Under the pieces are notes generated by a model that did not search any database, was not told where the DNA came from, and saw nothing but the letters and a program-made list of their open reading frames with translations. The translations under genes were made by a program, and so were the position numbers. From NCBI GenBank assembly GCA_044892525.1, contig CM097885.1, positions 18,664,001 through 18,728,000 on the forward strand: a stretch of 64,000 bases of DNA, read 5' to 3'. Within the stretch, counting starts at the first letter, position 1. Every line of letters begins with the position of its first letter. This document shows, one piece after another, positions 11,918 through 43,104 of this stretch. The stretch is from Schmidtea polychroa (Eukaryota).

Positions 11918-12399
11918 TTTTATTGAATAAATTTTATATCTTTACATTTGTTATTTGGTAAATTTTTATGTTTGTTATGTGTCTAGTTCATTTTTATGTG
12001 TTTAGTTAATGTTTATATGTTTTGTTATGTGTCTAGTTATTTTTATGTGTTTAGTTAATTTTTTATGTGTTGTATAGTATTTGGTTGATATATTATTAAT
12101 ATTATTTTTATTATTATTATTATTATTATTATTATTATTATTATTATTATTATTATTATTATTTCATAAAAATTTTCATTAAAAATTATCTTAAAAATTA
12201 TTCTATTAAAATTTCCATTAAAAATTACCATTGAAAATTATTCATAAAAATTTCTATTAAAAATTACTTAAAAAATAATTCATTAAAATTTCCATTAAAA
12301 AATTTCAATTCTCAAACACCTTCTATTTTTGTTAATAAATTTAAAAATCTTACTTTAATTTACTTATTACATTACTTTAATTTACTTATTTAAAAATTA

Positions 12400-12625
12400 T
12401 TACTTTAATTTTAAAATTTTTGACCTTAATTAACTTTAATTTAATTTTTAGAACCATAATTTACTTTAATTTTAAAATTTTTGACCATTATTTACTGTAA
12501 TTTAATTTTTAGAACCATTATTTACTGTAATTTAAAATATTTGGACCATTATTTACTTTAATTTAATTTTTTAGAACCATTATTTACTTTAATTTAAAAA
12601 TTTGGATCATAATTTACTTTATTTT
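12400..12625. repeat. ~30-bp subterminal tandem repeat (GACCATTATTTACTGTAATTTAA...), same family as the element 2 arrays
   Basis: Direct sequence match to 39170-40630. Confidence 0.85.
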
Positions 12626-13064
12626 AAAAATTTACTATGCGTTTTTTAATGTAAACCACCTTTTCTATTGAAATTCTCATGACCAAGAAGATCCCCTCAC
12701 TATAGTGTGAAAAATCCATGCTTTTTTATTGAAGACTACCTTTTTCTATTGAAATTCTCAGGACCAAGGAGACCCACCCAAATAATATTTATCCTTGGCT
12801 TGTTTATTGAAAAAAAAAAAAAAAAAAAAAAAAAATTTGTATTTAAAATCCCAGAAAACATTGGGCATTACGGCAACAATTATGTAATCAAAAAATGTCT
12901 ACGGAAAAAGTTATGCAATCAAAAGTTTGCAACATTTTTTACCCCCCCCCTATTGCTGCCGTAAGCCACTAACTACCTCCTATGATAATATTTTTTTAAT
13001 TTCATTTTGTGAATTTTTTAATTAAATAAACATATTTATAGTAATAATCAAGCAACATTTACAC

Positions 13065-13391
13065 CATAGCTATTCAATTAGATTTTGTCATGGGCCAAAC
13101 TAGATAAATCTGAAGATGCTGGCATGCCAGAAGCTCGGAGGAGGGGTTTGGAGAGGTGGACGATGAGAACATTCAAAAAATGTTTTAAAATGATAAAGGT
13201 GAAAGGTGCATTTTGGAAGCTTTTAATAATGAATTAAAAATTTACAATGTAAATTATGGAATTTAATCAATGTGAAAATGATGGGAAAATGAAATATATA
13301 TATATATATTATAGATTTAAGAAATCCTTAAAATTTTGACATAGTTCAACGAGCCAAATTGGTCCCGCAGGCCGCCAATTGAATAATACTG
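13065..13391. mobile_element. hAT-type MITE
   Basis: Imperfect TIRs CATAGCTATTCAATT / AATTGAATAATACTG. 8-bp TSD ATTTACAC/ATTTACAT. Subterminal GGTCCCGCAGGCCGC. Confidence 0.65.
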
Positions 13392-38700: not shown

Positions 38701-39169
38701 TAGGTGGTTGTTGGTAATTATTGCTTAGTACCTGGTTGTTGTGGGTTGTTAGTACTTGGTAGGTGGTTGTTAGTACTTGGTATCAGGTAACTGGTTGTTA
38801 GTAACTAGTTGTAGGTATCTGGTTGTAACTACATGTTCGTAAGTTACTGGTTGTTGGTTTGTTGTTGAATTATTATTAAAATTTGTCATTGAAAAATATT
38901 TCATAAATATTTCCATTAAAAATTAACTTAAAAAATTATTCCATAAAAATTTCCATTAAAAATTAACTTAAAAAATATTTCATTAAAATTTCTATTAAAA
39001 ATTACTTAAAAAATTATTTCATAAAAATTTTCATTAAAAAATTTCAATTCTCAAACACCTTCTATTTTTTGTTAATAAATTTTAAAATCTTACTTTAATT
39101 TACTTATTACATTACTCATTTTTAAATTATTACTTTAATTTATTTATTTAAAATTTTTTACCATTGATT

Positions 39170-40630
39170 ACTTAATTTAAAAATTATTACTTTAATTTAC
39201 TTATTTAAAATTTTTTACCATTGATTACTTAATTCAAAAATTTGGACCATAATTTACTGTAATTCAAAATTTTTGACCATAATTTACTGTAATTTAATTT
39301 TTTAGGACCATAATTACCTTATTTGAAAAATTTGAACCTTAATTTACTGTAATTTAATTTTTTAGGACCATTATTTACTGTAATTCAAAATTTTTTACCA
39401 TAATTAACTGTAATTTAATTTTTTGAACCATTATTTACTTTAATTGAAAAATCTGGACCATAATTTACTGTAATTGAAAATTTTGGACCATTATTTACTG
39501 TAATTGAAAATTTTGGACCATAAATAACTGTAATTTAATTTTTTAGAACCATTATTTACTTTAATTGAAAAATTTGGACCATTATTTACTGTAATTTAAT
39601 TTTTTAGGACCATTATTTACTGTAATTCAAAATTTTTGACCATAATTTACTGTAATTCAAATTTTTGACCATAATTAACTGTAATTTAATTTTTTAGAAC
39701 CATTATTTACTTTAATTGAAAAATCTGGACCATAATTTACTGTAATTGAAAATTTTGGACCATAATTTACTGTAATTCAAAATTTTTGACCATAATTTAC
39801 TGTAATTTAATTTTTTAGGACCATAATTACCTTATTTGAAAAATTTGAACCTTAATTTACTGTAATTTAATTTTTTAGAACCATTATTTACTTTAATTTA
39901 AAAAATTTGGACCATTATTTACTGTAATTTAATTTTTTAGGACCATTATTTACTGTAATTCAAAATTTTTGACCATTATTTACTGTAATTCAAAATTTTT
40001 TACCATAATTAACTGTAATTTAATTTTTTGAACCATTATTTACTTTAATTGAAAATTCTGGACCATAATTTACTGTAATTGAAAATTTTGGACCATTATT
40101 TACTGTAATTGAAAATTTTGGACCATAAATAACTGTAATTTAATTTTTTAGAACCATTATTTACTTTAATTGAAAAATTTGGACCATTATTTACTGTAAT
40201 TTAATTTTTTAGGACCATTATTTACTGTAATTCAAAATTTTTGACTATAATTTACTGTAATTCAAATTTTTGACCATAATTAACTGTAATTTAATTTTTT
40301 AGAACCATTATTTACTTTAATTGAAAAATCTGGACCATAATTTACTGTAATTGAAAATTTTGGACCATTATTTACTGTAATTCAAAATTTTTGACCATAA
40401 TTTACTGTAATTGAAAATTTTGGACCATAATTAACTGTAATTTAATTTTTTAGAACCATTATATACTTTAATTGAAAAATCTGGACCATAATTTACTGTA
40501 ATTGAAAATTTTGGACCATTATTTACTGTAATTTAATTTTTTAGGACCATAATTTACTGTAATTCAATTTTTAGGACCATAATTTACTGTAATTGAAAAA
40601 TTTGGACCATAATTTACTGTAATTTAAAAA
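39170..40630. repeat. ~30-bp tandem array, right arm of element 2 (expanded)
   Basis: GGACCATAATTTACTGTAATTGAAAATTTT-type units, the reverse complement of 28250-28800. Confidence 0.92.
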
Positions 40631-43104
40631 ATTTACCACGTTTTTTTAGTGTAGACCACCTTTTTGTATTGAAGTTCTCAGGACTAAGGAGACCCACCTC
40701 ACTATAGTCTGAAAATTCCATGCTTTTTTAGTGGTAGTCGGATTTTTGTATTGAAAAAATTTTTTGTATTGAAAATCCCAGGACCATCGTTTTTGTATTG
40801 AAAAAAATTTTTTGTATTGAAAATCCCAGGACCATCGTTTTTGTATTGAAAATCCCAGGACCATCGAGACCCCCTCGCTATAGTGTGAAAATTCCATGCT
40901 TTTTTTATTGAGACCGCCTTTTTCTATTGAAAAAATTTTTTTGTATTGAAAATCCCAGGACCATCGAGACCCCCTCACTATAGTGTGGAACAATTGCGTA
41001 ATAAAAAGTTGCAACAAAAAATGCGAGTTGCAACAATTTTTTTTCTAGGGGGGGGGGGGGGGTAATTGTTGCAGTGGGCCACTATCTACCTACTCACCTA
41101 AGACACCATGAAACCAAAATCCAAAAGTACCATCATATCTGTTATTTCATATGGATTGCTCAAATCTCGTCACTACTAAACTTGATAAAGTTGAATGTTT
41201 GGTTCTGTTAGTTTTTGTGGCGTCTGTGTGCGTGTTGCTGAGGTTTTTGCTAGTTGAGTGCTGTGTGCGCACAGAGACGCGAGGTTCTCGAAATTAATTC
41301 GAGTTTTTTGAAATTATTTATTTTATAATTATTTCTAGTTCTGGAATTTTTGTTTCTTTAAATTGGTTTTGTTGTAAATTCAAATTGTAAAGATTAATAA
41401 AAGTTTTTTATTCGCTGGAATTAGTTATTCAATTACATCGAAAATTGTTTAATAGAATTAGTTATAAAGGAATTTCGTGCAGAATATCATGACTATATGA
41501 TCAAATATGAAGTTTATTTACGGTATTTAATTGTAAAATGTGAAGAATCATAACAATTAGAATTGGTAAACGATAAAAATCAAATAAATATTTAAGCGAA
41601 AGGTTTAATTGAATACTCAGACAGCGAAGACAATGAAATTCAAACTAATGATGACATTTCAAACAATAGCCCAGTAAAATCTGAAGAAATTGCACCTGAA
41701 ATTGTATTTTCGAAAATAGAAGAGACTGAAGAATATTTATTAATTAAAACAAATCAATGGATGACTGAACCGGTTGATGAAGCAGAAAAGTATTTGAAAT
41801 CGATTATTAAAAAGAGGTCAGAAACGCTCAAAAACAAAATCGAATTTCTAATTTACGATGGATAATAATCTAAAAGACATTTCGATCCAAGTTAAGGTAT
41901 CTTTGCGAACGGGTTTGGCAGAATCTTTGATAACAATTTATCAGTTGAGAACGATTTCATGGCAGATATTAAAGGATTCAAATAAGGTCTCCGGTATTTT
42001 GGAGATGTGAACAATTTTTATTAAGACAAGGATATTTATTATTTAGGAAAACCAAGATGTCCTGTTCCTTCCAATCCATTTATTACAAATTCTATATATC
42101 AATAAATATTTTTGTTTCATTAAGTGTCGTTCGTGAATTTGGGATACCGTATTATCTTACAGAATAAATTAACTTACAATAAAGATCTTTAAGCCTAACA
42201 TTTTATCTCTCCAAATGACTTATAGGCCGTTTGTCTGATATCTACAAAATATCTTATTAATCCTTATTAATCTATTTTTAGAGAATTTGCAAAACTGATA
42301 CATTAAAACAAAATTTACTTTATCGACTTTTCTTTTCAGACTACAGATCAATATTTTGTTTTATTTCTAACATGGAAATTTGAGCTAAATATAAAAAATA
42401 ATTTTTGTCTGCGATTGGGATAATCAATGAAAAAAGGATAAAAGATTTTCCTGAATGAATTTAATTCTTAAAATATTAATGAGAAAAAGAAATTAAATAT
42501 TTTCGATACAAAATGATGTTTGACTCTCACAATTGTTGGCGGCAAGCACCGACAAAAACTTTTACAATAGACAAATTAATTTTTCAACGCAATCTCACTA
42601 GATGTATATAAATTCGGATTAGGGAGAATGACAGACAGTTGGAATCAGCTTTTATGCGCTAATGTCTTTTTATTAGGCGGTTTCTAATCGGAGATTTATT
42701 ATAATAAAATACAATTTTAGAAATTTCATTTATTTTTATTATGACAAAAGATCGAAAATTTATGTTACATAAATTGTTGCATAAATTGTAAATTTTATTT
42801 ATAAGTTTTGAAAATGTAATATTGTTATAGAATTTCGAAAAGTGACAAAGTCCAAATAATAAATGACAGGGAAAATGACAAAAAATATTTCCATTTTTTC
42901 CATATTCGAAGATTTTTCTCGAAATGTTTCATAAAATACGTGTTTATGAAAATTAATTTGCTTTTTTAAATGAATAATTTATCTAACTTACTTTAAATTG
43001 AAATATTTCCACAAATAAAATAAATAAATTTCTGAAAATGTAGAAAAATTAATAATAAAATGACTGAAATCGAAAATGATTATTCATCACGTTGATTTAC
43101 GCAC

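Follow-up and report, generated by a model that had tools for sequence, protein, structure and literature searches.

Two giant palindromes lie in the DNA analysed here, a 64-kb window of the Schmidtea polychroa genome (contig CM097885.1 of assembly GCA_044892525.1, positions 18,664,001 to 18,728,000 of the forward strand), and they raise the question of why elements with shared ends are folded back on themselves and differ in cargo. Element 1 (E1) carries the polymerase gene pPolB in both arms, and element 2 (E2) encodes nothing detectable. A first-pass annotation had proposed a multipartite or helper/satellite Polinton system, with functions split between segments. The helper/satellite relation was supported, since complete helper elements were found in the same genome. 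A split between obligate segments was not, because complete elements are common, E2 codes for nothing and most polymerase-bearing arms lack a full polymerase frame. Judged from sequence comparison, E1 and E2 belong to two abundant palindromic lineages, one polymerase-only (P) and the other gene-less (N), which have the ends of a complete Polinton of 16–18 kb and probably propagate as its snap-back satellites.

Palindromic architecture across the family

The left end of E1 was placed with the DNA to the left of the window; E1 had the predicted length of approximately 14.1 kb, and the 13.3 kb given for E2 was confirmed (Table 1). E1 was bounded on both sides by the 6-bp target site duplication (TSD) ATGATA. 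Its arms (positions 1–5485 and 6390–11874) differed by 16 mismatches over 5485 bases and enclosed a loop of 904 bp. The E2 arms were approximately 80% alike with many insertions and deletions, and in 13 of 16 windows of 350 bp another copy matched better than the partner arm. The two giant palindromes with spacers of 1–1.6 kb described in the first pass were thus recovered (the E1 loop lies in a centre of ~1.03 kb, and the E2 centre is ~1.56 kb), but E2 was a mosaic rather than a clean fold-back. The span then assigned to the pair (12160–41094) had to be redrawn, as it covers just the last 0.8 kb of E1 together with ~14.8 kb of unrelated DNA between the elements (12988–27745) that is part of neither.

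Over the 17-base termini, the right end of E1 matched E2 at 15 positions, as noted before, and the left end at 16. Of the subterminal arrays, the 30-bp arrays and a 102-bp array were present, and the shared block CTCAAACACCTTCTA was located at 12311–12325 in E1 and at 37283–37297 and 39050–39064 in E2, with a partial reverse copy at 28889–28900. The 16-base terminus of the family had 1,651 exact matches in the 781-Mb genome and a reversed control had none, so the sharing of termini is not due to chance; exact-match counts, here and for the markers below, are lower bounds. Ends of the form AGT...ACT are typical of Polintons, and the termini of this family are alike.

A survey blind to content took all plus/minus terminus pairs at most 25 kb apart among the first 100 terminus matches listed (contig 1, 0–34 Mb). 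It comprised 31 elements, E1 and E2 included, and the other 29 were fetched. Left out were a 0.3-kb pair that forms the centre of a P2-type element, unpaired termini (approximately one third of those listed) and three pairs more than 25 kb apart, whose ends belong to composites or nested palindromes. Eighteen elements were gene-less, 11 polymerase-only and 2 conventional, that is, 29 palindromic or gene-poor forms versus 2 complete elements. Inverted matches covered at least 70% of the left half in 24 of the 29 fetched elements; with E1 and E2, 26 of 31 were giant palindromes. The TSD was matched in 27 of 31. Palindromic architecture is a trait of this family, as the first pass had suspected, and its members did not turn out to be mostly conventional. 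The homopolymer run inside the terminus, reported as flipped between E1 (G-run) and E2 (C-run), tracked the class in all 29 fetched elements (G-run in 10 P; C-run in 17 N and 2 conventional). At two places (L083–L086 and L117–L120) neighbouring copies had one common TSD at their right ends, which suggests local duplication, recombination or mis-assembly.

A 20-mer from the P-type polymerase matched the genome 819 times. Among its first 100 matches, 62 stood in divergent pairs 5.7–11.5 kb apart and none in convergent pairs. A pattern from the N centre had 567 matches, and 7 of 8 sites checked lay inside N elements or hybrids, which is why we rejected a free-standing mini-transposon as the origin of the N centre. 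At G000:C1:0.3–1.4 Mb (L175–L178), 15 P-type polymerase markers without partners were clustered, and the four that were fetched were older, interrupted fragments (~89–95%).

The complete helper and its derivatives

Relatives of E1 and E2 coexist with complete helpers in the same genome, where complete elements are common. The helpers of this family (family A) were 16.2–17.9 kb long, within the 15–20 kb of Polintons/Mavericks, with terminal inverted repeats (TIRs) of 1–2 kb and matched TSDs. They encoded a TBP-like protein, an A32 ATPase (PF04665), an rve integrase, a major capsid protein, a C5 protease and pPolB, which is the Polinton gene set as given in the accessible text of PMC6431247. Two putative minor capsid genes without a database match were assigned by position. 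The model of the major capsid protein (pLDDT 92.2, 107-sequence alignment) matched iridovirus, mavirus and PBCV-1 capsids in Foldseek (E ~1e-14), and by this model the helper encodes a predicted double-jelly-roll major capsid protein. A capsid 20-mer had 214 genome matches; pPolB lay downstream in 18 of 20 further capsid loci checked. The polymerase frame was full-length in 18 of 26 helper copies and not in the other 8. A second family (family B) had a terminus with 902 genome matches and a polymerase 62% identical to that of family A. The family-A integrase was split over two frames, and in none of the 19 loci where both halves were read did it lie in one (e.g. L018:4370–4500). The two halves flanked a short GT..AG stretch. 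Family B (L141) had a low-complexity insert at this place that stayed in frame, and from this sequence pattern the stretch is likely a conserved small intron.

Further helper proteins were observed. The small TATA-binding-protein homologue (L018:2175–2687, also L141; PF00352, E 5e-16) is encoded head to head with the ATPase, and another small protein (L018:3464–3847) matched adenovirus core protein X (PF05829, E 3e-6). A helper subgroup (L032:1563–2546; L158, L163–L167, L169) had an extra frame of ~310 aa 3′ of the protease with no Pfam match; the fold point of the capsid-only palindromes described below lay within or near this frame. Capsid and polymerase relatives that were 52–60% identical (P0018/P0125, P0020/P0132, P0029/P0147, P0030/P0134) had longest contigs of matching length (15–19 kb), which are possibly whole free genomes.

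E1 and E2 have the helper termini and a 6-bp TSD without the full gene set, as expected of non-autonomous Polinton derivatives. In E1, pPolB was the sole core gene and an integrase of its own was missing; E2 had neither integrase nor polymerase. The two E1 frames point outward, one per arm, are broken at differing places near the 5′ end and were 91–93% identical to the helper pPolB; at the DNA level, the polymerase arm matched the family-A helper at 93% over 4.3 kb. A Pfam search did not call pPolB directly in the E1 polymerase, and a PDB sequence search of it gave no match. It was identified as pPolB because PF03175 is present in many of its homologues and because of its identity to the helper protein. 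The difference in cargo reported for the pair was confirmed, as E2 had no match to the helper proteins. A search of the N core and N loop for a conserved gene found none, and an Rfam search of the window and six loci gave nothing at gathering level. One family-B gene-less palindrome (L131:3160–3258) weakly resembled metazoan SRP RNA at a score below the gathering level (29.6 bits, E 2e-4); the family-A arm tested had no such match.

A full polymerase frame was present in 15 of 44 P arms; the other 29 lacked it, yet were inserted with intact ends. Between the P1-type polymerase, to which E1 belongs, and the helper polymerase, the ratio of nonsynonymous to synonymous differences (pN/pS) was 0.13 over 530 codons (2 of 50 rows, with frames <950 aa, were excluded). 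P sublineages differed from one another only in the first half of the polymerase alignment, a pattern that suggests recombination. The sibling palindromes limited to integrase and capsid genes that the first pass had proposed to look for were found but were rare. Two with TSDs measured 16.5 and 17.4 kb, and in two more of ~16.2 and ~18.2 kb one end or the TSD was unconfirmed; convergent capsid pairs made up 8 of the first 100 capsid-marker matches (four pairs, one of them a composite). Polymerase-less hybrids combined the helper integrase/capsid half with one N arm (L026/L027, L028/L029, L185, L137/L138); those of family A measured 16.6 and 16.9 kb, and the family-B form 12.5 kb. Complementation between half-genomes is possible but not needed.

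Proposed fold-back origin, length and rival explanations

Both arms of an element were often the same where copies differed. All 18 P arm pairs had 0 differences over 530 codons, and 9 of these pairs were unlike every other copy compared. The 5′ frame break stood at a matching place in both arms in 11 of 21 P pairs, at 8 different places. In 9 of 18 N elements both core arms were at least 98% alike, versus a median of ~78–83% to other copies; the remaining N elements, including E2, were mosaics. These patterns fit arms that were re-copied from each other, with copy-specific breaks mirrored in both.

The centres indicate where folding may have occurred. P1 copies had the 1.03-kb mini-element with family-B termini at their centre, between inverted flanks. 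In E1 it was without TSD, and the centre matched the end of a family-B element at 92% over 820 bp. P2 copies had a 0.3-kb family-A-type mini-element with inverted flanks at the centre, and at three loci loop-less hairpins closed on short native inverted repeats. One end is thus duplicated about an internal fold, as in snap-back genomes, and we infer from the sequences that the palindromes formed through fold-back at internal inverted repeats. P2 arms ran into a 0.7-kb piece of N core (74%), and an N-core element and P2 had the same centre (92% over 1.5 kb). E1 retains a relic of 53 bases that E2 also has (Table 1). P-type elements therefore likely arose from the gene-less backbone by capture of the polymerase end of a helper. 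In family B, gene-less palindromes accounted for 6 of 10 pairs fetched, with a core 66–82% like the family-A N core, and polymerase-only palindromes for 5 clear and 2 truncated cases among 8 pairs fetched. Neither the N core nor the E1 inner arm matched family-A helpers, and none of 9 family-A helper loci had the E2 motif at 34186–34307. The N backbone is old and has probably changed ends, since its core is absent from family-A helpers and akin to family-B palindromes, and the motif is common with family-B helpers.

To our knowledge, the copying mechanism of Mavericks/Polintons is a model, not an observation. Palindromic replicons are known for phi29, adenovirus minichromosomes and Streptomyces plasmids. 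The satellites would use the integrase of the helper and, probably, the helper capsid too. As DNA is copied by protein-primed strand displacement, a strand that is nascent or has been displaced would fold back at an internal inverted repeat (nested mini-element ends or a native hairpin of a few bases) and copy its own arm, giving the same end twice. A displaced strand of such a molecule could then close on itself as a full hairpin whose origin is double-stranded, and one arm would serve as the template for re-copying or correcting the other; annealing between different molecules would yield mosaic arms such as those of E2. The helper integrase would insert the product, and an N backbone that captured a polymerase-bearing helper end would found the P lineages. 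In the weakest step, on which we are evenly divided, doubling would lift a unit of 6–8 kb to helper length, fit for the capsid.

This step depends on length, for which the blind survey was combined with loci found otherwise. The helpers had a median of 16.6 kb (n = 9). Family-A N elements measured 8.0–17.7 kb (median 16.1, n = 19) and P elements 9.4–16.3 kb (median 14.2, n = 15), with 16 of 19 and 13 of 15, respectively, within 12.4–18.3 kb; capsid-only palindromes measured 16.2–18.2 kb (n = 4). The size window is soft. Because most lengths cluster near helper size, and by analogy with gutless adenovirus vectors, capsid packaging is suggested, with grounds for and against in about equal balance. 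The packaging or replication constraint put forward in the first pass stood in so far as most copies are near helper size; its packaging part is indirect and has exceptions.

In a multipartite system, polymerase-only and capsid/integrase-only segments would replicate and be packaged jointly without a complete helper. P-type elements, the 16.5- and 17.4-kb capsid/integrase palindromes and the polymerase-less hybrids all exist as TSD-flanked insertions, with the common termini and similar length of segments (Bidnavirus segments share termini, according to the accessible text of PMC8502044), and the low pN/pS of the P1 polymerase and the full frames in some P arms also count in its favour. However, the essential genes are not divided in the absence of a complete genome: complete elements are common, most of their polymerase frames are full-length and nearly all capsid loci checked carry pPolB, so no dependence between halves is forced. 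Capsid-only palindromes are rare and have different fold points, the commonest survey class encodes nothing, and selection that acted in a donor of helper type may account for the low pN/pS, given the recombination suggested by the sublineage differences. We consider a multipartite system improbable. Formation on the chromosome, where an ordinary insertion would be duplicated in inverted orientation and its arms homogenised by gene conversion, is unlikely. Gene conversion would likewise mirror private changes, local rearrangement is suggested by neighbouring copies with one TSD, and a 36-kb nested palindrome has an insertion mirrored on both sides. Yet dozens of unlinked loci have one and the same centre and inner arm with a separate TSD at each locus, and therefore the palindromes move as units; moreover, flanks beyond the TSD are unmirrored in most copies and mosaic arms remain unconverted. 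An assembly artefact from fold-back reads is hardly credible, even though arms are often 99.5–100% identical and the support comes from assembled contigs, not raw long reads. Evidence against it comes from 6-bp TSDs in direct orientation next to unique flanks, a loop that is conserved and not palindromic, arm differences of 0.3–20% and class-specific centres at many loci. Contigs from four sequencing runs also extend over the loop and inner arm, and two of these runs, which are DNA or unlabelled, do so in 30 of 30 bins.

A closer contender accepts the satellites but traces their length to a small number of founding events, or to replication or integration, rather than to a capsid. It is favoured by the exceptions of 8–12 kb and 36 kb and by the handful of origins (P1, P2, N and capsid-only). 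Gene-less derivatives of DNA transposons usually shrink, though, and N copies that are ~80% alike with many variable tandem arrays are still centred on 16 kb; all four capsid-only elements, through deletions or early fold points, stay below the ~20 kb of a straight doubling of the helper left part. We see this as a serious possibility that falls somewhat short of even. Other points weigh against helper-dependent, capsid-sized satellites as a whole. The evidence comes from assembled contigs. Assembly polishing could have inflated the near-perfect arm identity and the mirrored homopolymer breaks, or gene conversion on the chromosome could have produced them. As it has no match in family-A helpers, the N core is not a simple snap-back of the present helper. 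Five of 34 family-A N and P elements were only 8.0–11.2 kb long, and family-B polymerase palindromes were ~10–12 kb. The 36-kb palindrome of palindromes, with matching TSD CATACA (L189, L205, L206, L190; G000:C1:12799098–12835428), consists of an N element with a 6.2-kb family-B insertion, doubled again. The size argument also rests on few independent origins.

Beyond the satellite reading lies a broader and more tentative one, which we think rather doubtful: animal Polintons may host a heritable satellite virome of capsid-selected genome length, in which a gene-less palindromic replicon persisted across two helper families by swapping ends and repeatedly captured a polymerase or capsid half. 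Complementary half-genomes would result, an incipient bipartite virus. If this reading is right, these loci would be genomic evidence for animal Polinton virions and for DNA copying via hairpin intermediates. On the satellite reading itself, hundreds of young integrated snap-back genomes are a record of replication intermediates (fold points, mirrored private changes and mosaic arms), and free or packaged DNA of the animal should be dominated by palindromes of 13–18 kb. Parasites in the style of defective-interfering genomes have turned into stable germline lineages more numerous than their helper. Standard annotation would overlook the gene-less class or take it for assembly error.

Known systems and the surrounding window

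The helper shares the 6-bp TSD, pPolB, rve integrase, A32 ATPase, C5 protease and double-jelly-roll capsid with Polintons/Mavericks (polintoviruses, adintoviruses). Unlike these, E1 has pPolB only, twice and divergent, E2 has no gene, and a single inverted repeat makes up ~90% of each element. Snap-back defective genomes of AAV have one end twice, occur in replication-gene and capsid-gene classes and depend on the full genome, and template switching has been proposed for them (PMC8235507). E1 and E2 resemble them in fold-back build, duplicated end and two gene classes; the AAV forms are transient, sub-genomic and varied in length, whereas the class described here is integrated, heritable, near full length and with fixed centres, and comprises old elements without genes as well. 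Gutless (helper-dependent) adenovirus vectors are filled with stuffer DNA, with a minimum of ~28 kb for stable HAdV5 packaging (PMC7279171). Like the N class they are gene-less linear genomes with helper ends, but they are man-made and non-integrating, and packaging of N and P elements is presumed, with a loose lower size limit. Butterfly polintons have hexon and adenain genes in TIRs of ~2 kb and polB-less insertions (bioRxiv 10.1101/2025.02.07.637071), and so also duplicate core genes in inverted repeats and include polymerase-less copies. Their 2-kb TIRs belong to otherwise ordinary elements, in contrast to the 6–8 kb arms found here, and gene-less or polymerase-only palindromes do not occur in the accessible part of that report. 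The Bidnaviridae, single-stranded DNA viruses with pPolB on one of two molecules, are obligately bipartite (PMC8502044), whereas family A keeps complete helpers and its halves are palindromic. Maverick particles were unobserved as of 2021 (PMC8097293). Our literature search found no description of giant-palindrome Polintons; repeat catalogues such as Repbase lay outside it, and a catalogue entry is possible.

Table 1. Coordinates of E1, E2 and their parts in the window.
Feature	Position	Strand	Remarks
E1, P1-type (polymerase-only) giant palindrome	1–12981		14,153 bp in total; left end 1,172 bases before the window
Right TSD of E1, ATGATA	12982–12987	+	
E1 left arm, part in the window	1–5485	−	
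E1 right arm up to the terminus	6390–12981	+	
E1 centre, mini-element of ~1.03 kb with family-B Polinton termini	5423–6452		Includes loop 5486–6389
pPolB frame, E1 left arm	3–3770	−	Continues beyond the window edge; broken near 5′ end
pPolB frame, E1 right arm	8294–11917	+	1207 aa stop to stop; first ATG 9035; broken near 5′ end
E1 non-coding inner arm	6453–8022		144-bp and 83-bp arrays; common to P1 copies, absent from conventional helper
Relic of gene-less backbone in E1	7395–7447		91% identical to E2 32914–32969
E1 subterminal region	12146–12981		13/39-bp array; block 12311–12325; 30-bp array 12396–12634; terminus with outward G-run
E2, N-type (gene-less) giant palindrome, mosaic arms	27752–41094		13,343 bp
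Left TSD of E2, CACCTA	27746–27751	+	
Right TSD of E2, CACCTA	41095–41100	+	
E2 left arm	27752–32771	+	Terminus with C-run; 102-bp array 27986–28208; 30-bp array 28251–28838; AC-rich arrays; N core
E2 right arm	34335–41094	−	Second, internal subterminal-block copy 37024–37526; expanded 30-bp array 39146–40634
E2 unpaired centre	32772–34334		~1.56 kb; remains of the inner arms; ~1-kb loop of intact N copies missing
Backbone relic in E2	32914–32969		Counterpart of E1 7395–7447
Motif common to family-B helpers and family-B gene-less palindromes	34186–34307	−	Weaker copies 30654–30707, 36511–36560

Other features were observed in the window. An old N-core fragment (71–74%) lies between E1 and E2 at 22163–22653. 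At 15560–16801 on the plus strand, a single frame encodes a hydrophobic protein of 413 aa that resembles a seven-helix receptor and had no Pfam match at 1e-3. Fragments at 43394–45741 are presumably pieces of a non-LTR retroelement, and a short stretch at 61182–61466 on the minus strand is, we assume from its resemblance, like the N-terminus of HSP90. A DDE_3 transposase (E 2e-17) is encoded at 60313–60984 on the plus strand.

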